A stretch of DNA of 64,000 nucleotides from an uncultured Candidatus Saccharibacteria bacterium (GCA_964643545.1 CAZXTE010000001.1:19101-83100); one strand, 5' to 3'; counted from the stretch's first letter, positions 30,288 to 58,700 are shown. The notes: a model not told the origin generated them from the sequence alone. A program made the numbers and translations.

Positions 30288-30470
30288 GTGTGCTCCTGTT
30301 GTCGTTTTTAGTAACGTGAAATTAACAATGTTTACCCCACAAATTCTAGCAAGTTTTCCACTGGTCGCCAACTACTTTCCACAGATTTCAAGATGGAGCA
30401 TTGCCCTGTGTACAAATATTCATCTGTTAGGCGCAATTCATTTAGAAATCACCTTTCGCAATTGTTTTCT

Positions 30471-30479
30471 TGTGGAAAA
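30471..30479 (-). promoter_or_regulatory. DnaA box (TTTTCCACA, 8/9 to TTATCCACA) upstream of dnaA
   Basis: TGTGGAAAA on the plus strand. A weaker box, CTTTCCACA, lies at 30375-30383. Confidence 0.45.
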
Positions 30480-30527
30480 CTTTTCTTCAATCCTCTAGAA
30501 TACGACTACGAAACCAAAGGAGAGGGC

Positions 30528-31904: not shown

Positions 31905-32159
31905 TACATGTGCACAAGTTGTTCATAGTATAGGCACAACTTTGTATAACTTTGGGGGTTACCCACAGCACAAAATTGGTCAGTTTTTTCACACCTCTTT
32001 GTACACTTTTTGTACTCGATTTGTACGTTGTTTATACACGCAATTTTTTGAAGTTCTAAACAGGCATTTTTATCTGTTAGTTACCGCCTTATACCCACAA
32101 TACACAGGGCTTACTATAACTACTACTACCTATTAATTAATAACAATATAAGGAACCAT
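31905..32159. other. putative oriC (dnaA-dnaN intergenic region with DnaA-box-like 9-mers and an AT-rich unwinding element)
   Basis: TTACCCACA (31959-31967, 8/9), TTGTGCACA-like, TTTTTCACA, TTATACACG and ATACCCACA (7/9 each). An AT-rich tract lies at 32110-32150 (tactataactactactacctattaattaataacaatata). Confidence 0.5.
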
Positions 32160-33251: not shown

Positions 33252-33281
33252 GGGAGGCCCTACGATGGCCTACAATACTAG

Positions 33282-34355
33282 GTGATGGCAATCGTTAGTC
33301 TGCAACTAGAAAACTTTCGTACATACTACCGGGATAGTTTCGAATTCTCGGAAGGGGTTAGTATTATTGTTGGTCCAAATGCCAGCGGTAAAACCAATCT
33401 TCTGGAAGCTATACTACTGCTCTGTGAAGGCCAATCGTTTCGCGCCAAAGATCACGAACTTATTAGCCACGAAAAAGACTATGCCCGAATTGAAGGTTTG
33501 GTGGGTATAGATAAGCGCATTGTTTTGATAGAGCACGATGGGATAGAGCGAAGCACAAAAACACACCAGATAAACACCCAAAACCTAAAACGTTTACCAC
33601 CAGCAAAACGAGTGCCGGTGGTGCTGTTCGAGCCGGAAATTTTACAGCTTTTCCAGGGTGGACCCGAAAAACGAAGAGAGTATATAGATAGTCTGATTAG
33701 CCGGACTACCCCAGGATTCAACACAATACTGCGTCAGTACAGGCGGGTCTTAAGCCAACGAAACGCGTTGCTAAAAAGGCAGCAAGCACCAAAGCAGGAA
33801 GAGTTCTTTGCCTGGGATGTCCGACTAAGTGAATTGGGTGGTCAGATTGCCACTGCGCGCAATCAGCTCATCGACAATCTCAACAGCTCAATAAATGAGG
33901 AGTATCAGAAGATAGCTAGCAAGAACAATAATGTGAGCCTTGAGTATCTCTCTAAAATATCGTCATTGTCGTATAACACCAAAATGCTCCACATGCTCGA
34001 GCAGGTATTCCAAACCGATCGGGAACGGGGGTATACAAGTGTCGGGCCTCACAGAGACGACTTGCAAGTGCTTTTTGATGGTAAAGATGCGAAACAGGTA
34101 GCCTCCCGCGGCGAGATGAGATCATTGGTGTTAACACTAAAGATACTTGAGCTAAAGATCGTAGAAGAGGCAGCCCAAAAGCAACCAATACTACTACTCG
34201 ACGATGTGTTTAGCGAACTTGATGGTGCTCGCCGCAAGGCCCTGACAGAATCAATACAACAATACCAAACCTTTATTACGACCACAGACGCAGACCTAAT
34301 CGTGAAGTATTTTATTGGAGCCTGCGAAATAATCCCCACTAACAGAGCAGTCTAA
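33282..34355 (+). CDS. recF: DNA replication/repair protein RecF
   Basis: Walker A GPNASGKTNLLEAI, an ABC-signature-like region and LLLDDV Walker B. Confidence 0.9.
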   Translation: MMAIVSLQLENFRTYYRDSFEFSEGVSIIVGPNASGKTNLLEAILLLCEGQSFRAKDHELISHEKDYARIEGLVGIDKRIVLIEHDGIERSTKTHQINTQNLKRLPPAKRVPVVLFEPEILQLFQGGPEKRREYIDSLISRTTPGFNTILRQYRRVLSQRNALLKRQQAPKQEEFFAWDVRLSELGGQIATARNQLIDNLNSSINEEYQKIASKNNNVSLEYLSKISSLSYNTKMLHMLEQVFQTDRERGYTSVGPHRDDLQVLFDGKDAKQVASRGEMRSLVLTLKILELKIVEEAAQKQPILLLDDVFSELDGARRKALTESIQQYQTFITTTDADLIVKYFIGACEIIPTNRAV

Positions 34356-37821: not shown

Positions 37822-37828
37822 GGTGTTA

Positions 37829-40800: not shown

Positions 40801-41575
40801 CACCTGCTGCCTTCCACATACCCTGGTTTGGGTCTTTTCGCCAGCCTTCTACGTCAAGGTTACTCACTTTGTCATTGACCTTAATCTTGTAGTCGCTTGC
40901 CCCGCCACTAAAACCATCCCGGGTTATTTCTATGCCGTATTTCTCGGATAGTTTATTCTCGAGGCGTGCATCGCGCCAACCCCTAAACAAGCGGGCAGCC
41001 GGCGAATCGCCTTCTAGATTGGCAATACAATTTTTGTCTATTGTCCCAGACGAACGACTACAGGTTCCCTTGCCTAGGTTTGGGATCACCTTATCTCGGA
41101 GGTACTTGTCTAGTAGCCTTTCTGCTCTCGTTTGCACAGCACTCTCCGAGCTGGCAAAAAAGCGACTCTGCAAATTTTCCATGATGTGGTTAATCTTCAA
41201 GGGCAAAAACGCCATGAATGCGGCCAGAATCAAACCGCCAATGCCACCCCCAATAAGCCCAGCACCAATCAATTTCTTTTTTTTGCCGCCCGTGGCACCT
41301 GCTAAAAATTTCTTAAGGCTTTGAAGGTCTTTTACATCCTCAGTATTGTAGCCGCTCCCAACCCTATCGCCGAGCGCATCTGCTTCTCTTGATGCGGCTC
41401 CGCCAACACCATCCGCTGCCTCTCCCTGAGCCTCTTGCTCTGAGATATTTGGTGTTTCTGTCGAAGCGTCACCACTGGCCTCGTTTGTTAGTTTGGGGTC
41501 CTCATCTCCGCCCCCCACACTTCCTGATGCTCTTCGAGGCGAGTCATCGTCATATATTTTTGATGGTTCACCCAT
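37829..41575 (-). CDS. giant (1248 aa) T4SS-associated membrane-anchored protein with SGNH/GDSL hydrolase-like and peptidase M15 (VanY-like) C-terminal domains
   Basis: N-terminal TM after a K-rich segment (LIGAGLIGGGIGGLILAAFMAF). GDSL-like VYVVGDSLTNG block. M15 motifs SRHQSGDAVDF (S-x-H-x-x-G-x-A-x-D) and terminal EPWHW. Confidence 0.7.
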   Translation of the reverse strand: MGEPSKIYDDDSPRRASGSVGGGDEDPKLTNEASGDASTETPNISEQEAQGEAADGVGGAASREADALGDRVGSGYNTEDVKDLQSLKKFLAGATGGKKKKLIGAGLIGGGIGGLILAAFMAFLPLKINHIMENLQSRFFASSESAVQTRAERLLDKYLRDKVIPNLGKGTCSRSSGTIDKNCIANLEGDSPAARLFRGWRDARLENKLSEKYGIEITRDGFSGGASDYKIKVNDKVSNLDVEGWRKDPNQGMWKAAGGRNDVRIKVRESFKEETLWKRVMYRFKVGRLLEEKYGIRRCVFACKSKDRIDDWKDKKKGAFRLVINRRVIIPYTQHLGFVLECIIDPACDSDKASKGEADNDGVRRDKIEKQIREALEKSGKEFTEETVEKIVEKTIKLADKSLTAFIVEEVVAKIAGEAAGSAASKGLPVIGWIDLAARITAKAKSAGPALKRWKYEIIGTQMVATYMLYRTTADECKGMHCNVELLGSMTNGVGDSAGDKDHKNQPAELAPLYGDILGEPIQKSSFLDVLSPQKAYAAETGSTASEPKYTCDDKNKPDTGKLICPEESLLTNGVIQKISDIFNQPPLSLLGQTADAWNATIGQILNLINKLIDLGVGAVEAAISKIFPQYADLKKMIEEQIGKIFETIAKWLIPSPVSADMSGARTFDMLAGGADVAGNNDAHYGLGGIRLTDAQVAEIRADQENQRNEEFQRQPFFARMFSTESPKSLVSQMAMATPSSVTRTANTGVTGLLANPFTSLSKSFGSLLATKKTFAADAKPDPFGVVQYGFPKNSSALDVDPDTLTDAVCEKMDKDWANGRGEFAGTLIEDKETGTDVHTKENPCLLNKKAVAAAGGRYTTDVLDPEDYESETTSGGGGSNSGGGNNAVYVVGDSLTNGMKDLGSLTNKLQTAGWEVTKVQATDGIDVDRSLEKIDLDRNEVSRAGTIAVMLGTNPGPDSPQFASKIKLMVDKIHEYNPSAKIFWMNAKTQISNYDAVAAAVSSQAAALKYTPIDWRAEVAKNPAKYPFAPDKIHHTAAGYLAKSDFLVASLGPPPASTGGTGDGTCASGTKNVGLADGYEGGVLKKITLCAILGFPSSSEESNPRSQYYVNGADGNVLVAADKSNDWVNMFNAMKSDGVSPKASSSFRTMKHQQELCAKDDKCPNGVYSDVAKPGTSRHQSGDAVDFALTRVGHPEEFGTKNGGKASPSNPRVAPGMPMWDWLIDNAGKYNLKQYWNEPWHWSHTGS

Positions 41576-41601: not shown

Positions 41602-43515
41602 TTAAACTCCAGGCGTCAATCTATTGTTAAGGTCAATGGTGCCTTGTGGCTGATTGATTTCGCCCTGTCTCATTTGTTGAACCTGCTGCGGATTCGTTGT
41701 GATAAGCCCGGTTTCTGTAGGGCTGGCTGTAATCTGGATATGAACGTGGCTTTGCCCAGCGAAGAACAGGCCCTGGCCAACAGGAAATTGACTGAGGCGC
41801 TTCTTCTCCTCGCTGGTAAGCTTGAATATATCAGCCAATACATCAACGGCAGACGTCGACTGCTTCAGCAGTATCTGCATGCTTGCGTTGGCAACGATCG
41901 CGCGACCCATGCGTGATCCCATAAAGTCCTCCACATCCTGGCTAATGGTGGTAATGCCGAGGTTGTACTTTCGAGCACGTTTTGCAAGCGAAAACAAGAA
42001 GTTAGCAGAGTCTTCGTACTTCATAAGCTGCCAAGCTTCATCGACAATCAGAATGCGACGTTTTACGTCACTCTTCGTTTTGTTCCAGATGTAGTTCAGT
42101 ACAATGTACATAGCAACGGGGCGTAATTCGTCCTCGAGGTCACGTATGTTAAACACAACCAGGGGATTATTGACGTTAGTATTCGATTGCTGACTAAAAA
42201 TGCCCGCAAATGTACCGGTGGTATATTTTCTTAGACGCTGTGCGAGCTGTGGTCCTGTGCCGCCCATATGTAGCAGCGTGTCGTACAGATCGGCAATTGT
42301 TGGCGGAACCCCATTGTGCGTGAGTGGATCGTTGGTTATGCCGGCCTTGGCATATGTTTCGATGAGTGCTGCGTCGAGGTCGGATTCTTCTACGGGGGAT
42401 AAAGCAGGAACAGCGGCTACACCGCCACTTGCTGCCATTTGTGCTTGTGCGCCACCCATCATCAGTCGGAAGAGCCCGTGCAAAGTAATAATATTACTAC
42501 GCAAGGCGTTGTCGGCTTCTTCGGCATCTACAACCTTCGGAAGGTCAAAGGGGTTAATGCGTGTTGCTGAGCTCAAACTTAGTCGTACATATGCACCACC
42601 GACTGCATCACACATTCGCTGGTATTCGTTTTCTGGGTCAATAATAAAGATTTCGGTGCCGAACATAAGACTACGCAACGCTTCTAGCTTAACGGTAAAC
42701 GACTTACCAGCACCCGACTTGGCAAAGACAACTGAGTTGCCATTTTCTAGGCTAAACCGATCAAATATAACAAGACCAGAGTTGTGCATGTTGATGCCGT
42801 ACAATATGCCATTCTCTTGGCTCAGGTCGGCCGAAGTAAACGGGAAGCTCGTGCTAATCGCGCCCGTGTTCATATTGCGACGAATCTGAAGCTGGTCCAT
42901 AAATTGCGGTATGCAACTATTAAAGCCCTGCTCTTGCTGTGAGGTAGCTGCTTTGGAGTAGGTTAGCTGTTGGCCCAGCATAGACTCGATCTTGTGGGTT
43001 ACAAACTCCAGTTCGTCCATGTCGCCTGCGTAGACAGTAAAATATAATCCAAAACGGAAGAAACGTTCCTCGCCAACCTGTAACTTATCGCGCATTTCCT
43101 CAGCATCTGTAATGGCGGCCTGCTTGCCTGGGTCTCGCACGCGTCCCTTCTCTGCGTCAATCTGTAGACCGGCCTCTAACTGCGTTACTTTTTTGCGCAA
43201 GTTCTCCAAAACCACTTGGCTTTCCACGGGGTATATATACATAGAAAGATCCATAACCTCGTCGATGTTTACCAGGCTACTTGCCCAGCCTGTAAAAACC
43301 TGGCGGGGGTATCCGTAGACATAAAATGTTCTGGCTATCCTGGTCCCAATATGGAACAGACTATTCTCGAACACAAGTGAACTGGGGGCGATAAAGTCAC
43401 GAAGTGCAGTGATGCCCTTTTGGAACGCTGCGCTTACCTCTTGCTCTTCTCGTGCTCGTTGCGCTTGTGCGATTGCAACCGGGTCAACGGGTTGGTTCTT
43501 TCTGCCAAAAGCCAT
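41602..43515 (-). CDS. virB4: type IV secretion ATPase VirB4/TrbE family (Gram-positive PrgJ/TraE-like)
   Basis: Walker A FAKSGAGKSF, Walker B RILIVDEAWQ, and an N-terminal APSS..F...ARTFYV..YP signature typical of monoderm VirB4. Confidence 0.85.
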   Translation of the reverse strand: MAFGRKNQPVDPVAIAQAQRAREEQEVSAAFQKGITALRDFIAPSSLVFENSLFHIGTRIARTFYVYGYPRQVFTGWASSLVNIDEVMDLSMYIYPVESQVVLENLRKKVTQLEAGLQIDAEKGRVRDPGKQAAITDAEEMRDKLQVGEERFFRFGLYFTVYAGDMDELEFVTHKIESMLGQQLTYSKAATSQQEQGFNSCIPQFMDQLQIRRNMNTGAISTSFPFTSADLSQENGILYGINMHNSGLVIFDRFSLENGNSVVFAKSGAGKSFTVKLEALRSLMFGTEIFIIDPENEYQRMCDAVGGAYVRLSLSSATRINPFDLPKVVDAEEADNALRSNIITLHGLFRLMMGGAQAQMAASGGVAAVPALSPVEESDLDAALIETYAKAGITNDPLTHNGVPPTIADLYDTLLHMGGTGPQLAQRLRKYTTGTFAGIFSQQSNTNVNNPLVVFNIRDLEDELRPVAMYIVLNYIWNKTKSDVKRRILIVDEAWQLMKYEDSANFLFSLAKRARKYNLGITTISQDVEDFMGSRMGRAIVANASMQILLKQSTSAVDVLADIFKLTSEEKKRLSQFPVGQGLFFAGQSHVHIQITASPTETGLITTNPQQVQQMRQGEINQPQGTIDLNNRLTPGV

Positions 43516-44387
43516 TACAGTAGCTCCCTGTCTAAGTTTGGTTGTGGAGCCTGTCCTTGCCCTCTTGTGACAACAGGTGTTGAAAGATCACCGAAGTTAC
43601 GAAGTTGCTGCCTTGTTGCAGTATCTGGGTTGTAGGCATCGTAGTAGAGCTCGATAAGTTCCTGGGTATCGAGTGGTAACCCTTGGATGCCGCACTGCAT
43701 CAATCCAGAGAGTACAGCTTGTACGCGGTTTCTCAGCTCGTCTTTTGCCTTGGCGAGATCAGTCTCATTGATAACCACTTGCTTCTCAGGCTTCTTGCTG
43801 AACAGTGCCCCAATGCCACCAACAAGTTTCTTGCTTTCATCCAGTGTTTTCTGCAGGTCTGCTACGGGGAAATAGGGTATGACCACGTAAAAACGTTTAT
43901 CCATAATGTTGGTTTGTTGGCTCAACTGATCCATGAAATTTATGTAATCGTCCATGAGTAGCGCCAACAGCATGTTGTCGTGCTCGCTACGAATTTTGAC
44001 AAGCTTATCCAAGTAAGGTCCAAGGTCTACCTTCTCGGAACGGATCATAATTTGTATAGGGAAATAGAGAGAATTTAGAAAACCCTGGTAGCTAAACTCA
44101 ACAGCCTCTCGTTCTTGCGGGCTCATTAGGTCAAAGTTAATAGATTTTGTCATGATGACGGAACGGAAAGAGCCATCGTTCATGATCACAATACCATCTC
44201 GGATTTCCGCTATTTGCAGGGCATTTTGTGTGCTGTTTGGGTTTGATGGTGGTGCAAGAGGTTGTGGTTTGGCCCCAGCGGTACGAGGTGCATTAAAGCT
44301 AGCAGGTGGCGGTCCAGCGGGGGTTGGGTATGCCATCCCGGGCTGGTTTTGTACGGGGTTCATCTGAGGATTTGATGCCGGATTCAT
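43515..44387 (-). CDS. T4SS-associated protein with Pro/Gln/Asn-rich N-terminus, translationally coupled to virB4
   Basis: 290 aa. The N-terminal ~65 aa are low-complexity and Pro-rich. Its stop overlaps the virB4 ATG (TAATG). There is no TM segment. Confidence 0.55.
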   Translation of the reverse strand: MNPASNPQMNPVQNQPGMAYPTPAGPPPASFNAPRTAGAKPQPLAPPSNPNSTQNALQIAEIRDGIVIMNDGSFRSVIMTKSINFDLMSPQEREAVEFSYQGFLNSLYFPIQIMIRSEKVDLGPYLDKLVKIRSEHDNMLLALLMDDYINFMDQLSQQTNIMDKRFYVVIPYFPVADLQKTLDESKKLVGGIGALFSKKPEKQVVINETDLAKAKDELRNRVQAVLSGLMQCGIQGLPLDTQELIELYYDAYNPDTATRQQLRNFGDLSTPVVTRGQGQAPQPNLDRELL

Positions 44388-44427: not shown

Positions 44428-45471
44428 TTAACGCAGCGATATTATTACTTCACCATCGTCAGTCTTTGATTGACTGGGGTGGTTCTTCTCTGCCTCTCGT
44501 GCCAAACTATCAATCGGGCGATTATTCTCGATTGCTAGGTTCAGTATATCAGGCGCAGGTGCTGCTGTCACCCCTGGTGATTTTGGTTGTGCTTGCGGGG
44601 GCTGACTCGAAAGCGGCTGGAGCTTTCTGTGGTTACGAAACGACTCATCTGGGTGGCTTTTTTGCTCGTGTATCTTGTTTAGTAGCGCCTGCTCATTTGC
44701 GTCTGGTATTGCTGGCTTGGCAAAAGTCGGAGCAGGTGTTGACCCTCCCTGTGATTGCACGAACCAGCCTCCTGGGGGTGCGATATTGGTGCTCGGTGCT
44801 TGTTGCTCCCGAGCAACTTCACGCATGTGAGAGACTGCCTCTTGTTGGTGCACTTCCTTCGACTGGGCAATTTGGGCATCGAGCCGAGCGGCCGTTTGAT
44901 TATCAAAAATATCATCCTCTGCTCGAACATCTATGGTCGAGACCTGCTTTGGCAATTCCTCGACCGCTACAAGCCTGTCCGAGCTTGGCGCCATAGCTAA
45001 CGAACCGTAAGAGGGCTGTGCAAATAAGTTCACGTCCACGTTCTTAATAACCCAACCACGGCTGTCTATGGTTGTTGCCAGCGCCTTAAGGCGGCTTTTG
45101 ACTTCGTTCTGGCTAAGGTTATCAGAGAAGTTCTGTTCAATATGTTTTGGAACAGTTATCTTGACCAGTTCCTTCATGCCCGACTGGTCCCAAATGCGTT
45201 TACGTGGCTTAAAGTAAAAACGGAGCTTAGCGAGGAGCCATACCTCAGTGGGCTGATCTCGACCCCACGGGAACGCCAAAAACCCAAAGACAATCTCTAT
45301 AGGCAACAAAATAACCGCCACAAACCATACATTGTGTGTAAGGCCCAAGAAACTTATGTAAAGACTGGTTACAACAATCGCCCCAAAGATAAATTGTTTC
45401 AGCGTTAAGGGGCCAAGGAACTTATCCTCTGCCTCAATATCCTGGAGAACTTTATACGTAGCCACTAGCAT
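44428..45471 (-). CDS. VirB3/PrgI-like membrane protein with a long Pro-rich C-terminal tail
   Basis: Two N-terminal TM helices (FIFGAIVVTSLYISFLGL; WFVAVILLPIEIVFGFLAF) within the first 70 aa, as in VirB3/TrbD. The tail is Q/P-rich. Confidence 0.5.
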   Translation of the reverse strand: MLVATYKVLQDIEAEDKFLGPLTLKQFIFGAIVVTSLYISFLGLTHNVWFVAVILLPIEIVFGFLAFPWGRDQPTEVWLLAKLRFYFKPRKRIWDQSGMKELVKITVPKHIEQNFSDNLSQNEVKSRLKALATTIDSRGWVIKNVDVNLFAQPSYGSLAMAPSSDRLVAVEELPKQVSTIDVRAEDDIFDNQTAARLDAQIAQSKEVHQQEAVSHMREVAREQQAPSTNIAPPGGWFVQSQGGSTPAPTFAKPAIPDANEQALLNKIHEQKSHPDESFRNHRKLQPLSSQPPQAQPKSPGVTAAPAPDILNLAIENNRPIDSLAREAEKNHPSQSKTDDGEVIISLR

Positions 45472-45523: not shown

Positions 45524-46495
45524 CTAAAGAGCTGGAGGTCCGGCAGGTGGTGCTGGAGGTGCAGCGGGCGGAGGCGGCAGTGCAGCTATGCGGGCAGCCT
45601 CTGCCGTAGCAGCTGCCTGGGCATCCAGATTGGCAGTTGCAAGTGCGGCAGTAGTTTGTATCTCGTTTAAGACCGCCCGCTCTGCATCGTATCTACCGAC
45701 GGCTGCATCAAGCAGGTTCACTCTCGTTTCTTTGGGGGTAGAAGCGCGTTTGTATTGAGGGCTAAATTCACCCAGAATTTTAAAAGCATCAAATCCACCA
45801 CCCTCCTTGTCGGGTCGCCTAGGGCGTTCCCGGGCAATGGGCATGTTGCTCTCGAATGGACCAAGGTCAGGCGTTGGGGAATAGGAGGTATCCTCTCCTA
45901 GGAGTGCTGGCCCCCGTGATGGAACGTGGCCTTCAAAGAATTCAAGCCCTGTCCCCACAATCCTACCAAGCGCTCCTGGATCGTCAGAGACGTGTTTTCT
46001 GCGACCCGTTGGGATGACTTCACGCCTAATGCTAAACACGGCAAATATTGGAGAGCCGCCGTCTCGGGCAACTTCCACCGGTGTGCTATAGGTTGTTTCA
46101 ACGCGTCCTATCGGCTGCTCTTCTCGCGAAATTCTGCCAGGTATGCGACTTCGCCGGTCTATACCAGGCCCTCTTGTTCGCAGGGCGTTTTGTCGCATGC
46201 GATCGGGCTCGCTTCTTTGGGTACGCTCTGCATCAACACCAATTCGCTGGATTAAGTCATCAACGTCTGCGGCTACTCGCTCTTGTTCTCCGTAGAATTC
46301 AAGCACAGCTTCCGCACCCCTGTGAATGTCCTGTGTTGCCTCAACGTGCGCTTCCCTTGTAGCCTCTTCATCATCACGTCGATCGTGTCTGGCCGTCTGT
46401 AATCTACGACGGAGGTCTTCTTGGTAGGCTGCTTGTTCTGGGCTAGGGATATCGCTCATAGTGTATTTTTGTTTTAATAGTGAGTAACAAATCAA
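45524..46495 (-). CDS. hypothetical charged protein with a C-terminal poly-Pro/Ala tail (VirB10-like linker candidate)
   Basis: The track start is a TTG. An ATG is possible at 46459 (MSDIPSP). The protein is Arg/Asp/Glu-rich and ends PPPPAAPPAPPAGPPAL. GC is higher than its surroundings. Confidence 0.5.
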   Translation of the reverse strand: MICYSLLKQKYTMSDIPSPEQAAYQEDLRRRLQTARHDRRDDEEATREAHVEATQDIHRGAEAVLEFYGEQERVAADVDDLIQRIGVDAERTQRSEPDRMRQNALRTRGPGIDRRSRIPGRISREEQPIGRVETTYSTPVEVARDGGSPIFAVFSIRREVIPTGRRKHVSDDPGALGRIVGTGLEFFEGHVPSRGPALLGEDTSYSPTPDLGPFESNMPIARERPRRPDKEGGGFDAFKILGEFSPQYKRASTPKETRVNLLDAAVGRYDAERAVLNEIQTTAALATANLDAQAAATAEAARIAALPPPPAAPPAPPAGPPAL

Positions 46496-46547: not shown

Positions 46548-49500
46548 CTATTGGCGCTTGGTGGGGTCGTTGCCAACATCTATTGGGATATCCTCTCCAG
46601 GAAGTGGGGTACCGGACCGTCCCGCTGGACCACCCGGTACAGTTGAGCGTGTTGGAGTACCGGCTATGGGGTCTGCTCTGCCTGTGGTGCCTACCTCGCG
46701 GCTCCACTCGACGGGGTCAGTTGCGGCGTGCCCTGTAGCTGGGTCGATCCTAGAACTAGTTTCAAATAATGCGTAAAAGTTCTCCATTTCTTCTTTGGTG
46801 CGTCCGCTAGCACCACCACCAACTTGGGTGATCATTCTTCCAGTTGGGGTACCGCTTGCCGTCATTTCCGGTACTGTCTGGCCGATGCTGCGTGCAATTC
46901 GAGCACCACGTTGGATAACTTCATTTGCGGCTGCCTGTTCATCGGCTGTTGCAGCTGGGTTAGCGAGTGTGGTACGAGCACGAACGACTTCTTCTGACAT
47001 TGTAGTCCAGGTGTCCGGATGCTGTTGTGTCATCTGGTATGTGCCTTGGCGTTCATCGATCTCTTGCATAAGGGCTGTGGCATTCATGGTTAGTCCATTC
47101 TCGCCGTATTGGTAATGCTTCCACTCGCGGTCGGTATTCTGGTTGGCGAAGGCCGCACCCGTCCATATGCCACCCATTTGGCCTGTAGTAGCATTTTCGG
47201 CAGCACCACCACGTGTTGCTAGGCGACCAACGTTCTGGTACAGGTAATCATGTTGTTCTTGGGTGGTGGCTTTGCGCATTTCGTAACTAAGAGCGTACTG
47301 TGCAGCATCTTGGTCCCCACGCCAGCGATTGTGTGCCGCATCCACGGCACTTTCGTCGACCCATTTCCCACCAAGTGTTTTATATTGACGTGTATTATTG
47401 TGGATTCGAACATGACCATTCCCGTCCGGGTCGTAGAGGTTGCCGGCTATAGCATCGGCCTCCGCCTTGTTTACAGTCAGTGCTCGTACCTCAGTATCAT
47501 CCCCGGTAGAGGTCAGCTGCTCCATTCGTTTTTGTGTTTCGCCACGCATTGCTGTAATACCCTCCTCGAGGTTATAGCCACCAACACGCCCCTGCAAGAA
47601 TCGCGCGCTTCTGCCAAACCGACCGCCCCTGCTGGCGTAGGTGCCAAGGGCACGGTATTGACGATCTCGTGCTGTTAGCATGCGGCGCTGCACATCTTGT
47701 TTGGCCTGTTCTTTGCGACTTTTGGTGAGCCCTCCAACCTTTGCGGTGCCCCCAGCAACGGCTGCATAGAGTTTGCCCATGGCTCCCCCGGCAAACTTGA
47801 AAGCAAAAGGAATCAGGAATAATGGGATAATTTGCAGCGAGAATGCGATGAGACCCGCAAGTCCCGCGGAAACAGGGTTGGGACTTCCGGAAGTCCCTAC
47901 GGCGTCATTTGCTACGAGTATTGTTGCGCTCAATATGCTGGCAGTCGAGAATATAACAACAACAATTGGGAACACTAGTAATGTCTCGAATAATAAGTTC
48001 CACCACTTTTTAAAATATTGTTCGGTATTTGGGAGGCAGTACAAAGCAAATGCAACGGGGCTGACCATAATGAGGGCTAATATAATGCCGCGCCGAATAA
48101 CGAGCGTTGCAAAGACCGCAAGGATGGCTAACATTGCCGGAACGACAATGCCGATAAGAATAAAAACTGCCGCCTTCCCCAGGAACCCTGCCGTTAAAAA
48201 CCCACCCAGGAACCCTGCAATACCTGCAGCCCCAAGAAACAATGCGAGAACAGTAGTTAGTACTGCGCCAAGTTGCGCCCCTGGGCTGGGAGCTGCATGA
48301 AGCAAATCGGCCACTGGGGCCATCATGAGCTGGGCAATTCCCTTGCCAAGAACGTTGGTGATGTCCACGAGCAAAGCCACAATGTAGACAGATAAGTTTA
48401 TGAGTATGGCCGCTATTAATATGCGTGGCATCACTTTCTTGGCTGTATACGCATCGATAATGCCTCCACCGATAGTTTGCCCAAAAACAATGACCAGCAT
48501 GGCTATGATGAGGAATATATTGCCATAAACGCGAAATGCCGACCACGCCTTGAAGCTCGGGTCTGATGGGTCGGTAGAAACAGGGCTGGTATATAAAAGA
48601 GGGGATACAAGATTCTTAAAAAGCCAGTCAGTTGTTTCGGCAAACATATTAAAGACAGGGCAAAGTATCCAGTTTAGGCTAAAACCAGATGCTTCGCAGG
48701 TGGCGTTTGTGTCGTCCGATGTGCCGTCCGTGTTCCCACCCCCAGACGGGTTACTGCCCCCACTATTATCTCCCTGATTTCCTTTAGAATCTTCAATTTG
48801 TTTCTGGTAATCGCCATCAAGATCCTTCATGAGCTTAGATAGGTCTGGGGTAAAGCCGTCATCTTCCAAAATATGGAAACATTTTTTATTCTTGTCGCCG
48901 CCACACTGCTGAGAGTTACTGTTCGTATCTAGATTATAGACGAGACTACTCCCGACCATCTGCACTGCGTAATTATCTGCCGTGATTGCGGCACTGGACC
49001 ATGTTACGTCATCTTGGTCTACTTCAAAGTCTTGATTGATGGTGAGTGCAATTGTTATCTCTTTGCCATCCTTGTCCTTTATGACGGATGCTGCACCACT
49101 ATTGTTGTTGCCAGGCAGCTTAATGAGACGAAAGCGAAAATTACCCGACTTTTTTAGAAAGGCGAGCTTGTCTGCCTGGGCACTAGCTTGTATGTAGTCT
49201 TTATCGCCAGCTTTAATTTTAAAGTGGACGCTTACTTTTCTTTGATTAAGTGGGCTGATATCGATACGTGACGTACATGTCTTGTCTCGATACGATTTGT
49301 CGGCAAACTTTTGGTGTTCCTCCCAGACCCCTGAGCTCTTAAGCTTTGAGTAGAGCTTTTCGGCTTGATCTGCATAAAACCTCTTGGTGCTCGCGTCGCC
49401 GCCATTACGAATGTCCCACAAGTGGTCCTGATCTTTGGGGTTGCCTTTCTGGTAGGTAAATGTGCCAGGAAAGCACAGGTCCATGGTAAGCCGTGCATCT

Positions 49501-49844
49501 CCATTAACAAATGTGGCAATACGGGGCGCAGCTACTGTAGAAAACTCAGCCGAGGCAGTCTTATAGGTATAGTCACCATTATCCGGGATAGATTCTGCTT
49601 TGTTATCGGCGCGAATGTAAGGCAAGTCTCGATCCGTGCGGGTTGTAAAGACATCCTTTCCCGGAACACGATTATAATTTGAGTTCACATCGTCATCATA
49701 AGGACTGGTAGCGTATGCTATTTGTGGCGTGAAAATAATAACGCCAGCAAGAAGCTGCAGGATGATAAATGATATAAAAGCAAATGGAATAAGCTTGCGG
49801 TTAGATCTCACAACTGAAGTATAGATTAACGGAATTAAATACAC
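46548..49844 (-). CDS. VirB6/TrbL/PrgH-like polytopic T4SS channel protein with large N-terminal extracytoplasmic and C-terminal soluble domains
   Basis: 1098 aa with a signal/TM at the N-terminus and a central block of about 7 TM helices (residues ~420-650). Both termini are hydrophilic. Confidence 0.6.
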   Translation of the reverse strand: MYLIPLIYTSVVRSNRKLIPFAFISFIILQLLAGVIIFTPQIAYATSPYDDDVNSNYNRVPGKDVFTTRTDRDLPYIRADNKAESIPDNGDYTYKTASAEFSTVAAPRIATFVNGDARLTMDLCFPGTFTYQKGNPKDQDHLWDIRNGGDASTKRFYADQAEKLYSKLKSSGVWEEHQKFADKSYRDKTCTSRIDISPLNQRKVSVHFKIKAGDKDYIQASAQADKLAFLKKSGNFRFRLIKLPGNNNSGAASVIKDKDGKEITIALTINQDFEVDQDDVTWSSAAITADNYAVQMVGSSLVYNLDTNSNSQQCGGDKNKKCFHILEDDGFTPDLSKLMKDLDGDYQKQIEDSKGNQGDNSGGSNPSGGGNTDGTSDDTNATCEASGFSLNWILCPVFNMFAETTDWLFKNLVSPLLYTSPVSTDPSDPSFKAWSAFRVYGNIFLIIAMLVIVFGQTIGGGIIDAYTAKKVMPRILIAAILINLSVYIVALLVDITNVLGKGIAQLMMAPVADLLHAAPSPGAQLGAVLTTVLALFLGAAGIAGFLGGFLTAGFLGKAAVFILIGIVVPAMLAILAVFATLVIRRGIILALIMVSPVAFALYCLPNTEQYFKKWWNLLFETLLVFPIVVVIFSTASILSATILVANDAVGTSGSPNPVSAGLAGLIAFSLQIIPLFLIPFAFKFAGGAMGKLYAAVAGGTAKVGGLTKSRKEQAKQDVQRRMLTARDRQYRALGTYASRGGRFGRSARFLQGRVGGYNLEEGITAMRGETQKRMEQLTSTGDDTEVRALTVNKAEADAIAGNLYDPDGNGHVRIHNNTRQYKTLGGKWVDESAVDAAHNRWRGDQDAAQYALSYEMRKATTQEQHDYLYQNVGRLATRGGAAENATTGQMGGIWTGAAFANQNTDREWKHYQYGENGLTMNATALMQEIDERQGTYQMTQQHPDTWTTMSEEVVRARTTLANPAATADEQAAANEVIQRGARIARSIGQTVPEMTASGTPTGRMITQVGGGASGRTKEEMENFYALFETSSRIDPATGHAATDPVEWSREVGTTGRADPIAGTPTRSTVPGGPAGRSGTPLPGEDIPIDVGNDPTKRQ

Positions 49845-49931: not shown

Positions 49932-50450
49932 ATGAACGAAAACAATAATCAAACACCAGCAGAAACCGTAGACTACAGTTTCATAACGGATCAACCCACG
50001 GCATCTCCAAAAAAGAAACCTAATAAAATGATCGCCATATTTCTCGGGTTGACGTTGCTCGTTATTTTGGCGGCGGGCTTACTGTTGTTAGTACAGTCCA
50101 AAAAAAGCACAACCAAAAGTAACATCGACGCAGAACAGGTCGTCCGACAACTTTTTGTAGATATGGGGAACGGGGATAATATCGCCGCCCTAAACGCATT
50201 TACGGGGCCAAATAAGCCGGATGCTGCGTACCTTGAGGGCTACTTAATAGCTCCGCTGAAGAATGATTACTTGGTAGATTCATGCACATTTACCTCTTCA
50301 GAAACAAAAGTAGCTAGCTATTACCAGGTCAAGGCATCTTGCCCACAAAAGCAAGCAAGTAACATCAGAATTCGTGTAGACTTTACAGTTATGAGACAAG
50401 AGCTATCATCGAAAATTGTTGCATACTCTCTTGGCGGGGTAGATACGTGA
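49932..50450 (+). CDS. bitopic membrane protein with NTF2/SnoaL-like ectodomain (VirB8-like candidate)
   Basis: TM (IAIFLGLTLLVILAAGLLLLV), then QLFVDMGNGDNIAALNAFTG, typical of the NTF2-like fold that VirB8 adopts. Confidence 0.5.
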   Translation: MNENNNQTPAETVDYSFITDQPTASPKKKPNKMIAIFLGLTLLVILAAGLLLLVQSKKSTTKSNIDAEQVVRQLFVDMGNGDNIAALNAFTGPNKPDAAYLEGYLIAPLKNDYLVDSCTFTSSETKVASYYQVKASCPQKQASNIRIRVDFTVMRQELSSKIVAYSLGGVDT

Positions 50451-51433
50451 AATTGGTAAAGCGGGTTCACACCGCCGGATTAGTTATCCTATCTGTCGCT
50501 GGTCTACTTAGTGCAACATTATTCGTACATCCAAAATCGGTCCAAGCAGCCGCGCCAATATGCTATGAGCTACTCGGCAGCTCTGGTAATGATGTCCGAG
50601 TGGCTGACTGTAATAATCCCACAGTAGTTACTTTAAGAGACCAAAAGTACCCTGCTGACAAAAAATTTCTTGACGATCACTGTTACCTATATGGTGGATT
50701 TGGATTTTTCATAAAACGAGGTTTAACAGAAGTGCCGCCTGCGAGCGATGCAAATAAGAAATACACCTGTGAGTGGGCAAGAAAAGCGGCGGCTGCAGGT
50801 CAGGCAGCCGCTCCAAAATGTTACTTATTCTCTCGTGCGACGTTGGACGATTACTTTTCATTTAAATTTGCCGCTACAGATATCAAGGAAACTGCGTGCA
50901 CGCAAGAATTAAAGAATTACTACAGGTTTGTTCACAATCCTAAAGAAATAGAAAGCGGGTGGTGCTACCTATTCAGCCAAGATCATAACAACATCCAGAC
51001 ATCATGTGCAGACCTTCTTTCCAATATTGCAACTGCAGATAGTAGCGGAGGCGGGGGCGGCGGCACCTCCAGTTGCGCAAGCGATCCAACGCTTTCTTTC
51101 TGTGTGGACCTGCCGGTTAAGACCAATGATACGTGCGGCGAAGCTGGTAGCGGTACGGAAGTCCAGATATCGATCAATGTGGGATGTGTGGGCAAAGGTA
51201 ATGGCATTCTTGATCTGACCTTTGCGCTCATTCGATTTCTCTCTTATGGTGTGGGCATTGCCATGGTGGCCTCTTTAGTTGTTGCTGGCATACAGTACAG
51301 CTCCTCTAGAGGTGATCCACAGGCTACCAGCAAGGCAATAGGTCGTGCGCAGAGCACTGTTGGGGCGTTACTTCTGTTCTTGTTTATATATGCTATATTG
51401 AACTGGATAATACCCGCAGGACTCTTGAAATGA
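50447..51433 (+). CDS. secreted Cys-rich protein with C-terminal VirB2/TrbC-like pilin domain (tip/adhesin pilin candidate)
   Basis: Signal peptide. About 16 Cys with internal CY[EL]L/CYLFS repeats and a Gly6 linker. The C-terminus has two hydrophobic helices separated by SSSRGDPQ, as in the downstream pilins. Confidence 0.6.
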   Translation: MKLVKRVHTAGLVILSVAGLLSATLFVHPKSVQAAAPICYELLGSSGNDVRVADCNNPTVVTLRDQKYPADKKFLDDHCYLYGGFGFFIKRGLTEVPPASDANKKYTCEWARKAAAAGQAAAPKCYLFSRATLDDYFSFKFAATDIKETACTQELKNYYRFVHNPKEIESGWCYLFSQDHNNIQTSCADLLSNIATADSSGGGGGGTSSCASDPTLSFCVDLPVKTNDTCGEAGSGTEVQISINVGCVGKGNGILDLTFALIRFLSYGVGIAMVASLVVAGIQYSSSRGDPQATSKAIGRAQSTVGALLLFLFIYAILNWIIPAGLLK

Positions 51434-51819
51434 CACTCCCCCTAACCTATTTTGCAGCAGCTTGTGAAGCTGGGAAAGACACCGCCGGGCAGGTGTTAAA
51501 CTTCTTTGCATTTCCTACGTGGTACAAATATCTTGAAGGGCAGACTATCACAAGTAACGGTGCCGCAGAATGTGCCCCTAAAATCACTAAGATTGGTGAT
51601 GCCTGGTTGGTGTTGGCGGCTGTTATAGAAATAATGCTACGAGTCGGTGCACTCATTGCGATAGCATTTGTTATCTATGGGGGCATATCGTTTATTACCA
51701 GCGAAGGACAGCCAGATAAAGCATCAAAAGCCAGGAGCACAGTAATAAATGCAGTTATTGGGCTGGCACTTTCGATTTCGGCATCGGCGGTAATCTCTTT
51801 CATAGCAAGGAGCTTTTAA
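51430..51819 (+). CDS. VirB2/TrbC-like pilin paralog 2
   Basis: 129 aa with two hydrophobic helices flanking TSEGQPDK and a Cys pair near the N-terminus. It overlaps the upstream gene (ATGA). Confidence 0.6.
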   Translation: MTLPLTYFAAACEAGKDTAGQVLNFFAFPTWYKYLEGQTITSNGAAECAPKITKIGDAWLVLAAVIEIMLRVGALIAIAFVIYGGISFITSEGQPDKASKARSTVINAVIGLALSISASAVISFIARSF

Positions 51820-52140
51820 GTGACATTCAACGTATTTGCACAAACACAGCCCCCACCTACTTCACAGGTTGGTGTTTGTACTACAGATTTGTGCAACACA
51901 AATCTGCCCGCAGTGAGTGCAGGAAGCACGCAAGTGACTACGGTTTTGCAGATCTTGTTTGGAGTGGTAGCAGTGCTGGCGCTTATTTATGTCATTTTGG
52001 CAGGTTTGAAGCTCATCACTTCCAGCGGTGATCCTCAGTCAGTAGCAAAAGGACGACAACAGATACTCTTTGCAGTTATTGGCCTGACAGTTGCACTCAG
52101 CGCCGAACTAATCATTTCATTTGTAATCAACAGGCTATAA
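51820..52140 (+). CDS. VirB2/TrbC-like pilin paralog 3
   Basis: 106 aa with a CTTDLC pair and two hydrophobic helices flanking TSSGDPQS. Confidence 0.6.
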   Translation: MTFNVFAQTQPPPTSQVGVCTTDLCNTNLPAVSAGSTQVTTVLQILFGVVAVLALIYVILAGLKLITSSGDPQSVAKGRQQILFAVIGLTVALSAELIISFVINRL

Positions 52141-52142
52141 TC

Positions 52143-52550
52143 ATGAGAAAATTAACACTAGTTATGGCAACCGTACTAGGCAGCATGCTTTTTGCGCTGC
52201 CGAATACAGTATTTGCGGTAGATGTTTTTGGGGGGTCGGACGGTGCTTGTACACAAGCAAATACCACGGGCGAAGTTCCGGAAATATGTAAGGACACCGT
52301 GAACGCAACGGGCGAGAACCCTATAGTAGGGCCGAGTGGTATTGTCACCAAGGGTTTACAAGTACTCGTCATTGTAATCGGCATCATTGCGGTTGTGATG
52401 TTAGTAATCTCTGGGCTACGACTTATTATGTCGGGCGGTGATCCAAAAAATGCGGCCAGCGCACGAGATGGCATACTGTACGCCGGTATTGGTATAGTAG
52501 TAGTAGTGACTGCACAACTGCTGATCAACTTTGTATTAACAAAACTGTAA
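52143..52550 (+). CDS. VirB2/TrbC-like pilin paralog 4
   Basis: 135 aa with a signal peptide, a C..C pair, and helices flanking MSGGDPKN. Confidence 0.65.
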   Translation: MRKLTLVMATVLGSMLFALPNTVFAVDVFGGSDGACTQANTTGEVPEICKDTVNATGENPIVGPSGIVTKGLQVLVIVIGIIAVVMLVISGLRLIMSGGDPKNAASARDGILYAGIGIVVVVTAQLLINFVLTKL

Positions 52551-52558
52551 AGGAAAAA

Positions 52559-52969
52559 ATGAAAAAAATTGCCCGTTTCAGGAAAAACTTGGTAGTAGCA
52601 CTGGCGTCTGTGTTCTTCTTAGTACCGCTCTCGCCTGTTCTGGTGCATGCAGGACCATTCGACAGCGCCAAAGACGCAGCATGTAAGGGTTTAAATTTTG
52701 ACGACCCTACGGCCACGTGTGCTGCAGGCTCTAAGGACGCAGAAACAAATGCCAAGCTAAAGACGGCCGTGAATCTTTTGTCGGCTATTGTGGGTGTAAT
52801 TGCAGTAGTTATGATTATCATTGCAGGCATGAATTTTATAACTGCAGGAGGAGATTCGGGCAAAGTTTCAACTGCCAGGAATATGATTCTGTACGCTGCA
52901 ATTGGTATTGTAGTTGTAGCCCTCGCACAACTGATCGTCCGCTTTGTCTTGCAACGATTCGGGAAGTAG
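52559..52969 (+). CDS. VirB2/TrbC-like pilin paralog 5
   Basis: 136 aa with a signal peptide, a C..C pair, and helices flanking TAGGDSGK. The C-terminus is ALAQLIVRFVLQRFG. Confidence 0.65.
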   Translation: MKKIARFRKNLVVALASVFFLVPLSPVLVHAGPFDSAKDAACKGLNFDDPTATCAAGSKDAETNAKLKTAVNLLSAIVGVIAVVMIIIAGMNFITAGGDSGKVSTARNMILYAAIGIVVVALAQLIVRFVLQRFGK

Positions 52970-53031
52970 CTGTTGTAACTTCCCTCAAAGTTGTGATATA
53001 AACATAAGTAGCAATATAGAAAGGTAAAAGA

Positions 53032-53460
53032 ATGATTAAAAAATTAAAACGTTTAGTAGTTGGCTTCACCGCTTCGGCTGCACTGTTAATGCCTTTGGCT
53101 ATACCTGTGGCTGTTCACGCGCAAACGACTGAAGACATTGGAAAGAACTTTTGTCAGGGGGCAGACATAACACTCGGTACTGGTACGGGTAGCTCTGCAA
53201 CCTGTGATACCAAAGATGCAGAAAGCAAAGTGAATACTACCGTAAAGAACTCGCTCAATCTTTTTTCGGCAATAGTTGGTATTTTGTCTGTAGTCATGAT
53301 CATTATTGGTGGTGTTAAGTACATCACCTCTGGTGGTGAATCTGGCAAGGTTACCTCAGCCAAAGACAGCATTTTGTTTGCGGTCGTCGGATTGATTGTC
53401 GTGGCTCTTGCACAACTGATCGTCCGCTTCGTCTTGCAACGATTCGGTAACCCCACCTAA
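53032..53460 (+). CDS. VirB2/TrbC-like pilin paralog 6
   Basis: 142 aa with a signal peptide, a C..C pair, and helices flanking TSGGESGK. Its 3' 38 nt are near-identical to those of paralog 5 (52925-52962 versus 53410-53447, one mismatch). Confidence 0.65.
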   Translation: MIKKLKRLVVGFTASAALLMPLAIPVAVHAQTTEDIGKNFCQGADITLGTGTGSSATCDTKDAESKVNTTVKNSLNLFSAIVGILSVVMIIIGGVKYITSGGESGKVTSAKDSILFAVVGLIVVALAQLIVRFVLQRFGNPT

Positions 53461-53481
53461 GAAAGTTAGACGTATTAAAAA

Positions 53482-53506
53482 AGCTCCGGGTAACCGGAGC
53501 TTTTTA
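53482..53506. terminator. bidirectional rho-independent terminator between the pilin array and convergent hsp20
   Basis: AAAAA-AGCTCCGG-gtaa-CCGGAGCT-TTTTT: an 8-bp perfect stem with a GTAA loop, an A-run upstream and a T-run downstream. Confidence 0.7.
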
Positions 53507-53521
53507 TTTGGTCGAGGTATT

Positions 53522-54829: not shown

Positions 54830-54919
<90 letters not shown>

Positions 54920-54940
54920 AGACTAGCTTTTCGTGTTACG

Positions 54941-55033
54941 TGGCGGAGGAGGAGGGATTCGAACCCTCGCGGGAGATTGCTCCCCCCTAACGATTTAGCA
55001 AACCGTCCCCTTCAGCCTCTTGGGTACTCCTCC
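54941..55033 (-). tRNA. tRNA-Ser (anticodon GCU), type II
   Basis: Minus-strand read: GGAGGAG acceptor, anticodon arm ACGGT-TTGCTAA-ATCGT, long variable arm, GAGGGTTCGAATCCCTC T-arm, and CCA. Confidence 0.85.
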
Positions 55034-57823: not shown

Positions 57824-58039
57824 ATGAAAATGAACGCAGTAGATAAAGTTGCATACCTGCTCCTCGTAGTGGGTGGCCTCAACTGGGGCCTCGTGGGAGT
57901 TTTTGAATGGAATCTAGTAACAAAACTTTTTGGGGTTGATTCTGGTTTGACCAGAGTTGTATATGCGCTTGTTGGTGTCGCAGCGGTGTACGGTTTGTAT
58001 ACTATCGTCAGCATGCTTGCAAAGGGCGAAGACGCGTAG
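57824..58039 (+). CDS. DUF378-like small membrane protein
   Basis: 71 aa with a strong RBS AAGGAGGG 7 nt upstream. Two TM helices (LLLVVGGLNWGLVGVF; VVYALVGVAAVYGLY). Confidence 0.6.
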   Translation: MKMNAVDKVAYLLLVVGGLNWGLVGVFEWNLVTKLFGVDSGLTRVVYALVGVAAVYGLYTIVSMLAKGEDA

Positions 58040-58124
58040 AGCGTCAACCGGGCAGTCACAGAAAATCGGGGCAACGCCCCGATTTTTATTTGGTTGGCAT
58101 GATGAGCGAGGGTATATACTGTAT

Positions 58125-58700
58125 ATGATGAGTAAAAGCCAAAAGAAGTTATATGGCGTGATCCTATTCGGGGCACTTGTTGGTTTTATTGCTTCTTTTT
58201 GGCAACTACTCGAAAAACTAACATTGCTAAAAAACAGTGCTGCTCCCTTAAGTTGTAATCTGAACACCGTCTTTAGTTGCACGAATGTATTGAATGCTCC
58301 TCAGAGCTCAGTGTTTGGCTTCCCGAACTCGCTACTGTGCATTATTTTATTCACCATTGCCATTGTTGCAGCTATAGTTGGATTAACGGGTACAAAAATA
58401 GCTCGTGGGGTGCGTTTTTCGTTTCAATTCCTAGCTCTCTTTACCGTATTCTTTGGCCTTTGGTACCTATGGCAGAGCATATTTAATCTAGGGGCAATGT
58501 GTATTTTCTGTGTTTTTTGTTTCGGGGGCGTGCTAACGATAAATGCCGCTTGGTTCAGGCTGAATTATTCGGATTACCCGATTTCAAAGTCACTTAAGCG
58601 AAAGATCGATGTAGCGGTCGCTAACGGCGCCGATATTTTCTTCTGGTGCCTCATCGGCTTGATTGTTGTAGCAGAAGCAGTTATCAAATTCACTCGCTAG
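58125..58700 (+). CDS. vitamin K epoxide reductase (VKOR) family thiol-disulfide oxidoreductase
   Basis: Four or five TM helices with the active-site CxxC arrangement (C...CNLNTVFSC). The start is placed at MMSKSQKK. Confidence 0.65.
   Translation: MMSKSQKKLYGVILFGALVGFIASFWQLLEKLTLLKNSAAPLSCNLNTVFSCTNVLNAPQSSVFGFPNSLLCIILFTIAIVAAIVGLTGTKIARGVRFSFQFLALFTVFFGLWYLWQSIFNLGAMCIFCVFCFGGVLTINAAWFRLNYSDYPISKSLKRKIDVAVANGADIFFWCLIGLIVVAEAVIKFTR

Follow-up and report, generated by a model that had tools for sequence, protein, structure and literature searches.

Why a single type IV secretion system (T4SS) should be accompanied by six different pilin genes is the question raised by a locus in the genome of a Candidatus Saccharibacteria, a monoderm epibiont of the candidate phyla radiation (CPR). 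The 64-kb stretch of DNA that was analysed is referred to here as the window, and positions are counted along the whole of it. Open reading frames (ORFs) in the window were called mechanically, taking the earliest possible start codon. Between 50447 and 53460 on the plus strand there are six consecutive co-oriented ORFs, g1 to g6, in agreement with an earlier reading made from the DNA alone (hereafter, the sequence-only reading), which had regarded them as VirB2/TrbC-like pilins and had proposed either antigenic or host-range variation or a heteropolymeric pilus. We hold it to be rather probable that the six genes encode a fixed set of non-redundant subunits of one T4SS filament or conduit, with g6 as the major and g1–g5 as the minor subunits, and not antigenic versions of one another; among the earlier proposals, the heteropolymeric pilus fits best. 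The six ORFs are:

50447-51433, plus strand: g1, position-1 pilin, 328 amino acids (aa)
51430-51819, plus strand: g2, position-2 pilin, 129 aa
51820-52140, plus strand: g3, position-3 pilin, 106 aa, the shortest of the six
52143-52550, plus strand: g4, position-4 pilin, 135 aa, with predicted signal peptide, Cys pair and two helices
52559-52969, plus strand: g5, position-5 pilin, 136 aa
53032-53460, plus strand: g6, position-6 pilin, 142 aa

The first five genes are closely packed, with an ATGA overlap between g1 and g2, a TAA-GTG abutment between g2 and g3, and gaps of 2 nucleotides (nt) from g3 to g4 and 8 nt from g4 to g5; the gap from g5 to g6 is 62 nt. As judged by hydropathy and alignment, g1–g6 have in common a C-terminal domain of roughly 70 residues, composed of two hydrophobic helices and a short loop. 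The loop carries Gly-Asp/Glu/Gln-Pro/Ser in each protein (from g1 to g6: SRGDPQATSK, SEGQPDKASK, SSGDPQSVAK, SGGDPKNAAS, AGGDSGKVST and SGGESGKVTS) with a single invariant Gly, which is looser than the S/T-G-G-D/E-P/S-x-K motif proposed by the sequence-only reading. Other features that it had ascribed to all six proteins apply to most of them: g2–g6 are small (106–142 aa) but g1 is not (328 aa); exactly two Cys precede the first helix in each of g2–g6, but 12 do so in g1; and an N-terminal hydrophobic segment, a possible signal peptide predicted from hydropathy, is found in g1, g4, g5 and g6 only. The strong divergence of the N-terminal parts was borne out, since the ectodomains differ strongly and pairwise identity among the six proteins has a mean of 34% and a maximum of 55% (g5 and g6, full length), with 64% for the pilin domains of g5 and g6. 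Position-specific hidden Markov models (HMMs) detected no seventh pilin-like ORF in the window. All six genes are intact, and no silent cassettes or invertible elements were found at the array.

The top Pfam match for all six proteins is T4SS_pilin (PF18895), for which the gathering threshold is 26.6 bits. The scores of g2 (27.7 bits), g3 (39.3), g4 (42.9), g5 (50.8) and g6 (51.2) are above this threshold, and that of g1 is below it at 17 bits. Despite the low score, g1 joins the pilin family because profile–profile alignment with hhalign matches the position-1 family to the families of the other positions with 98.6–99.4% probability (E 1e-16 to 1e-21); every pair of the six position families aligns with 98.6–100% probability. 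Second to PF18895 is the TrbC/VirB2 family (PF04956, threshold 27.9 bits). In the g6 family, comprising the window protein and 51 orthologues, all 52 members match PF18895 and 47 of the 52 match TrbC at E<0.01 (best 4.8e-9). As the g6 orthologues match PF04956 while the window proteins stay under its threshold, the relationship to TrbC/VirB2 holds at the level of the superfamily. Proteins g2–g6 also give sub-threshold matches to NCBIfam NF045849 (Mbov_0395, a pilin-like conjugal transfer protein of a Mycoplasma integrative and conjugative element, ICE), with g3 at 39 bits against a cutoff of 40, a hint that the pilins may have arrived together with the monoderm-type T4SS instead of having a Gram-negative origin. 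The sequence-only reading would have been refuted by a placement of the proteins in an unrelated holin-like or bacteriocin-immunity family; no holin family was matched in a scan of PHROGs, nor any holin or immunity family in the Pfam scan. The genomic context is that of a T4SS, with VirB4-, PrgI- and TrsD/TraC-like genes 5–9 kb upstream of the array and a putatively VirB6-like gene adjoining it. Together, the profile matches and alignments show that the six genes encode proteins with one homologous, predicted two-helix VirB2-like pilin domain.

The history of the array was followed in related genomes. Loci were fetched with the g6-family profile, the 80 highest-ranking being kept from at least 524 g6-like matches, and their ORFs were called mechanically and then screened with the window proteins and the position-specific HMMs. 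The window itself, plus three metagenome contigs in which its array recurs, brought the set to 84 sequences. A comparison of copy number, suggested by the sequence-only reading, found exactly six contiguous pilin ORFs in 54 of the 84, and removal of two copies identical to the window left 52 genomes for the analysis of orthology. In 300 of 312 cases a protein and its best cross-genome match occupied the same array position (51, 51, 51, 50, 45 and 52 of 52 for positions 1 to 6). For positions 1, 2, 3 and 6 the median same-position score exceeded that of any paralogue from the same array in 51/52, 51/52, 45/52 and 51/52 genomes, respectively. Because the best matches keep their array position and, at these four positions, own-array paralogues mostly score lower, these comparisons show that the genes form six ancient, distinct groups of orthologues whose order is fixed. 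The ratio of nonsynonymous to synonymous substitution rates (dN/dS), calculated against the closest genome (L004), is 0.03–0.14 for all six genes. The N-terminal parts of g1, g2, g4, g5 and g6 give 0.03–0.09, these being gene-wide averages and not site-level values; synonymous divergence is saturated in the N-terminal part of g3. The ratios show purifying selection to be acting on all six genes.

The spacing of the genes is itself conserved. Positions 1–4 are joined by overlaps or by gaps of ≤10 nt in 98–100% of genomes, and the junction of positions 4 and 5 in 65%; the spacer ahead of position 6 has a median length of 73 nt across the 52 genomes (interquartile range 65–76 nt). Within the 62-nt spacer of the window lies one feature:

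52973-53024, plus strand: promoter-like element and ribosome-binding site, composed of TTGTAA (52973-52978), a TG-n-TATAAA motif with the sequence TGATATAAA (52994-53002) and AGAAAGG (53018-53024)

The conserved consensus, TTGAAA-N17-TGnTATAA followed by AGAAAGG, stands directly upstream of the last pilin gene only. Its extended -10 motif is present ahead of position 6 in 38 of 52 genomes, ahead of the other positions in 0–6 of 52, and in 3 of 52 after shuffling. The element was found by cross-genome comparison, and a terminator downstream of the array (described below) by folding; a generic sigma-70 scan of the region returned no more sites than expected from shuffling and missed both. We infer from the conserved motif that the last gene alone has its own promoter.

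The orthologues of g6 are the most conserved of the six positions. A total of 487 homologues of g6 were found, mostly 45–60% identical across about 97% of its length; the protein from the nearest reference genome, a Candidatus Saccharibacteria metagenome-assembled genome, is 96% identical. Metagenome contigs that agree with the window in gene content and order encode an identical g6 protein. An AlphaFold2 (AF2) model of g6 with a predicted local distance difference test score (pLDDT) of 75.6 shows a leader helix and, after it, a long hairpin of two helices (residues 60–99 and 107–139). The architecture of g1 comprises a predicted signal peptide, a Cys-rich ectodomain of about 215 aa and the C-terminal two-helix pilin module. 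The module is widely conserved, but a search of 5.8 billion proteins yielded only three full-length relatives of the ectodomain, which cannot be aligned between genomes; the length of the position-1 protein ranges from 133 to 425 aa in related genomes. The AF2 model of g1, calculated with 12 homologues, is unusable (pLDDT 41.5). The ectodomain-coding region (50447-51200) encodes four repeats of about 45 residues, each opening with 'CY' and containing a second Cys, and then a Gly6 linker and four more Cys.

Proteins g2 and g3 have no N-terminal hydrophobic segment of the kind found in Sec-type signal peptides, and upstream extension of either ORF is impossible. Among orthologues, a hydrophobic N-terminus is seen in 37% at position 2 and 22% at position 3, compared with 89–100% at the other positions. 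An FPxWYKYL motif in g2 is conserved among position-2 orthologues, and position-3 proteins measure about 100 aa across related genomes. In the window, g3 begins with GTG immediately after the g2 stop, in the same frame and with a single TAA between them. Read-through to a g2–g3 fusion was considered and rejected as a general mechanism because the frame of the junction varies among genomes, others having overlaps of -4 or -1 in different frames. The Cys pairs of the array proteins probably form extracytoplasmic disulfides. At 57957-58700, 4.5 kb beyond the downstream end of the array, is a gene for a VKOR-family protein (Pfam E = 9.5e-24), a candidate for the oxidase that would introduce extracytoplasmic disulfides in this monoderm.

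As the sequence-only reading had pointed out, g5 and g6 share a nearly identical 38-nt 3' end, in which one base differs:

52925-52962, plus strand: conversion tract in g5, 37 of 38 nt identical to its partner at 53410-53447
53410-53447, plus strand: conversion tract in g6, partner of 52925-52962

The rest of the two genes is far more diverged, and no other pair of paralogues has a common run longer than 16 nt with at most one mismatch. The corresponding tract in L004 is 50 nt long. The synonymous variants co-vary by genome, with CGATTCGG in both copies of the window and CGGTTTGG in both copies of L004, and since these differences track the genome and not the gene, the identity can be ascribed to gene conversion. 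Of the two origins offered earlier, conversion is thus the one that stands. Recent duplication of g5 and g6 was rejected, as each has separate, position-specific orthologues in many genomes and the near-identical patch has the properties of a conversion tract. Five other genomes (L035, L047, L070, L026 and L053) have independent, near-identical patches of 43–54 nt between the position-5 and position-6 genes, at varied places in the helix-coding region. With near-identical position-5/6 patches ranging from 38 to 54 nt, the pattern suggests recurrent short-tract conversion between these two genes in several lineages.

The novelty implied by the sequence-only reading does not hold, because six VirB2-like pilins of the saccharibacterial T4SS locus have been described (PMC10633639, PMC12102498, PMC12857230); the array is a rediscovery, and the window provides one more example of it. 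In Candidatus Southlakia epibionticum ML1 the T4SS corresponds to SEML1_0006-0019 (Wang et al. 2023, PMC10633639; reviewed in PMC12857230). The window was compared with ML1 by gene order, gene lengths and Pfam annotations and not by aligned sequences. Both have the order dnaA-dnaN-recF, T4SS, VirB6-like gene, six pilins, convergent hsp20, ComF-like gene and tRNA-Ser, with pilins divergent from the VirB6-like gene, a third pilin gene that is short and a wider gap ahead of the last one (83 nt in ML1; PMC10633639). The ML1 pilins are 132, 185, 103, 126, 127 and 138 aa long, a pattern similar to that of the window. Among the entries of Table S2 of that study that were compared, SEML1_0014-0016, 0018 and 0019 are annotated with PF18895, and the table gives a TrbL/VirB6 protein, at a low score, as the best structure-based match of SEML1_0013 (3267 nt). 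The differences are that the first pilin of the window is far longer (328 aa) owing to its Cys-repeat ectodomain; that the window has an additional coupled gene, g0, upstream of g1, no gene of equivalent size being listed between SEML1_0013 and 0014; and that no counterpart is seen in the window for two ML1 genes, an extra one of about 3 kb in the cluster (SEML1_0011) and one for a seventh pilin that is unlinked and non-essential (SEML1_0024). By transposon insertion sequencing (Tn-seq; PMC10633639, Table S1), each of SEML1_0014-0019 was scored GD/ES/ES, that is, growth-defective and then essential, with 11–15 insertions per gene in the input DNA and 0–2 at the later outgrowth points T1–T2 (PMC10633639).

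No T4SS other than the saccharibacterial one has been reported as a growth requirement of the bacterium that encodes it. That a monoderm CPR cell might build a conduit to its host, an idea raised as speculation in the literature, is suggested chiefly by the pilin array. On the explanation preferred here, the six genes would constitute the VirB2-like pilin set of a chromosomal, origin-proximal saccharibacterial T4SS. Once in the cytoplasmic membrane, the pilins would expose their disulfide-bonded N-terminal part on the outside and keep the short charged loop on the inside. The VirB4/VirB6 machine would pull them out and polymerise them into a single filament, or a conduit across the wall, directed toward the host cell, with the VirB6-like protein as the assembly platform. 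Given its own conserved promoter-like element and the highest conservation, g6 would be the major subunit, providing the bulk of the polymer, and g1–g5 would be translationally coupled, low-copy minor subunits. With its large, fast-changing, Cys-rich ectodomain, g1 is a possible distal or host-contact subunit, and the leaderless g2 and g3 are possible initiator or adaptor subunits. The paralogues would be complementary parts and not alternative antigenic versions because of their fixed positional orthology, the purifying selection on them and the essentiality of their ML1 counterparts. A more specific form of this explanation is conceivable, in which an ordered heteromeric filament has g6 as the shaft, g2 and g3 as the base or initiator, g4 and g5 as adaptors and g1 as the tip, and gene order mirrors the order of assembly; we regard this as possible but doubtful, and know of no such ordered filament in any characterised T4SS. 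If it were true, the choice of the host bacterium to which the epibiont attaches or from which it feeds would be set by the fast-evolving Cys-repeat ectodomain of g1, and the division into major and minor pilins known from type IV and chaperone-usher pili would have an equivalent in a T4SS.

The six fixed orthologue slots, the promoter-like element of the last gene and the two leaderless members all bear on the choice between such a machine and antigenic variation. The first proposal of the sequence-only reading, by which the genes would encode interchangeable alternative pilins that are displayed one at a time or in changing mixtures, evading host defences or binding different host strains, now appears quite improbable. 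It would accommodate the strong differences between the N-terminal ectodomains of the paralogues, the near uniqueness of the g1 ectodomain to this lineage and the short position-5/6 conversion tracts of several genomes, and the VirB2 paralogue families of Anaplasma and Bartonella have been read in this way (cited in PMC12102498). An antigenic cassette should, however, show recent lineage-specific amplification and diversifying selection on its exposed parts. Here same-position orthologues mostly outscore own-array paralogues at positions 1, 2, 3 and 6, and the gene-wide dN/dS averages give no sign of diversifying selection, the short-range constraint being strong on all six genes. The order is fixed with one-to-one positional orthology, coupling between the intact genes is tight and silent cassettes or invertible elements are absent, each gene of the orthologous ML1 array was scored essential, and the variation between lineages is concentrated in the ectodomain of one subunit, g1, and not spread over the paralogue copies. 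The virB2-like genes of Anaplasma, Ehrlichia and Bartonella resemble the array in standing several in tandem and in their divergent exposed regions, but they are interpreted as lineage-specific amplifications for antigenic variation, whereas the copies in the window arose before many Saccharibacteria genomes diverged and keep their order. In 383 Patescibacteria assemblies, a survey by Quinonero-Coronel et al. (2025, PMC12102498) counted 441 arrays of 2–11 VirB2-like genes, which were commonest among Saccharimonadia and Microgenomatia; it treated them as variable and proposed antigenic or host-range variation. Identity within arrays is low both there (mean 25%, maximum 54%) and here (34% and 55%); in contrast to that interpretation, the relatives of the present array display positional orthology, purifying selection and a promoter-like element specific to the last gene. 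The comparative results thus favour a heteromeric machine over variation.

Two further explanations dispute the pilus or the family itself. It is possible to imagine membrane-bound translocon subunits that line or gate the VirB6 channel, or form a short stalk through the wall, with no extended filament. No VirB2-type filament has been reported for Saccharibacteria, two members have no leader peptide, the proteins are very hydrophobic and a monoderm system needs to cross only the wall, all of which would suit such subunits. We nevertheless consider this unlikely, in view of the homology to profiles of pilus-forming TrbC/VirB2 proteins, the conserved disulfide-capable ectodomains, which in g1 amount to an external domain of about 215 aa, and the behaviour of PrgF from a Gram-positive system, which acts as a lumen-forming polymer in labelling experiments; the difference is also one of degree, as a short conduit is a short pilus. 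That the proteins belong to an unrelated two-helix membrane family (holin-like, immunity or small transporter subunits) and stand beside a T4SS by chance is hardly credible. Weak sub-threshold matches to DctQ, cytochrome bd subunit II and Vma12 could be cited in its favour, as could the non-specificity of hairpin folds. The sole profile matched above threshold is nonetheless T4SS_pilin, followed by TrbC and the Mycoplasma ICE pilin-like family; no phage holin family was matched; the linkage of the array to T4SS genes is conserved in the loci examined and in ML1; and a pilin gene lies near virB4 in 1135 surveyed assemblies (PMC12102498).

The explanation by a fixed set of pilus subunits has a number of points to its disadvantage. 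The name of PF18895 is a computational annotation, and to our knowledge no member of the family has been found by experiment to form a filament. The matches of the window proteins to PF04956 are sub-threshold, the best being 22.0 bits for g5, 20.7 for g6 and 16.3 for g3. Sequence searches of the PDB with the array profile or the g6-family profile returned no solved pilin, and the g6 model drew non-specific matches in fold searches, as is to be expected of a helical hairpin. The explanation offers no export route for the Cys-bearing N-terminal parts of g2 and g3, and the putative promoter of g6 is a motif match only. Positions 4–6 are less cleanly separated than positions 1–3, the position-5 protein having its best match in a position-6 protein in 7 of 52 genomes, and the loci compared are relatives of this genome and not a sample of all Patescibacteria. 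The essentiality of the upstream genes in ML1 could be a polar effect on the last gene. Finally, the filaments isolated from another Saccharibacterium are of a different, immunoglobulin (Ig)-fold type (10.64898/2026.03.03.709456); that report makes no mention of a T4SS or VirB2, and no T4SS pilin appears in the passages of its proteomics table that were consulted.

The array was also compared with known conjugative pilins. Like the Gram-negative TrbC, VirB2 and TraA proteins (PF04956), the products are small and combine a short charged loop with a pair of hydrophobic helices; they are encoded with VirB4, VirB3 and VirB6 homologues and have family-level profile similarity. Those systems, however, usually have one such gene in place of six, and the array differs further in belonging to a monoderm host, in the ectodomain Cys pairs, in the two leaderless members, in scores under the PF04956 threshold and in the lack of a recognised relaxase or coupling-protein gene among the 31 ORFs scanned of the window's 95 ORFs of ≥100 aa. 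PrgF of the Enterococcus plasmid pCF10 is VirB2-like, is essential for conjugation and has been modelled as a pilus on a VirB6 pentamer (bioRxiv 10.64898/2025.12.18.695078). PrgF and Mbov_0395 resemble the array proteins as two-helix proteins with a charged loop, encoded near virB6 in a monoderm T4SS of the mating-pair formation (MPF) FATA type. Their systems are conjugative, with one functional VirB2-like gene, whereas the system of the window is chromosomal, is without a recognised relaxase, has six distinct subunits and in the relative ML1 is required for epibiotic growth.

The remaining features around the array are as follows.

49932-50450, plus strand: g0, 172 aa with one predicted membrane helix, not a pilin; its stop overlaps the g1 start (GTGA)
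53478-53509, both strands: bidirectional intrinsic terminator with a 12-bp stem and U-run (-22.6 kcal/mol, z = -4.86), common to the array and the convergent hsp20
46548-49844, minus strand: polytopic membrane protein of 1098 aa, divergent from the array, VirB6-like by synteny
45524-46495, minus strand: 323-aa protein, no family given
44428-45471, minus strand: PrgI/VirB3-like protein (Pfam PrgI 3.4e-11)
43515-44387, minus strand: TrsD/TraC-like protein (PF26593 TraC-like; NCBIfam TrsD 1e-5, under its cutoff)
41602-43515, minus strand: VirB4-like ATPase (Pfam TraG P-loop 1.5e-26, AAA_10)
37829-41575, minus strand: cell-wall hydrolase fusion of 1248 aa, with GDSL lipase/esterase and VanY carboxypeptidase domains
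35401-37863, minus strand: cell-wall hydrolase fusion of 820 aa, with GH3 and NlpC/P60 Pfam domains
30393-34355: dnaA, dnaN and recF, directly flanking the T4SS cluster

The g0 protein matches no family in Pfam, NCBIfam or PHROGs, and homologues are found upstream of the array in about 12 of 83 fetched related loci; on the evidence of this distribution and the overlap, g0 is a lineage-specific accessory gene with predicted translational coupling to g1. The 1098-aa protein has no match in Pfam or NCBIfam, and its VirB6-like character is inferred from synteny, as it has the same place and size as SEML1_0013. The two hydrolase fusions (35401-41575) stand at the end of the T4SS cluster, in the same place as the essential lysozyme/peptidase genes SEML1_0006-0007, and their target may be the envelope of the host instead of the wall of the cell itself. 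The T4SS is origin-proximal, since dnaA, dnaN and recF directly adjoin the cluster, an arrangement that has also been reported for other Patescibacteria (PMC12102498). Downstream of the array are the convergent hsp20, a gene for a ComF-like phosphoribosyltransferase and two tRNA-Ser genes. The latter form a tandem pair on the minus strand (54830-55033; anticodons TGA and GCT), and long spurious ORFs on the plus strand overlap both of them.

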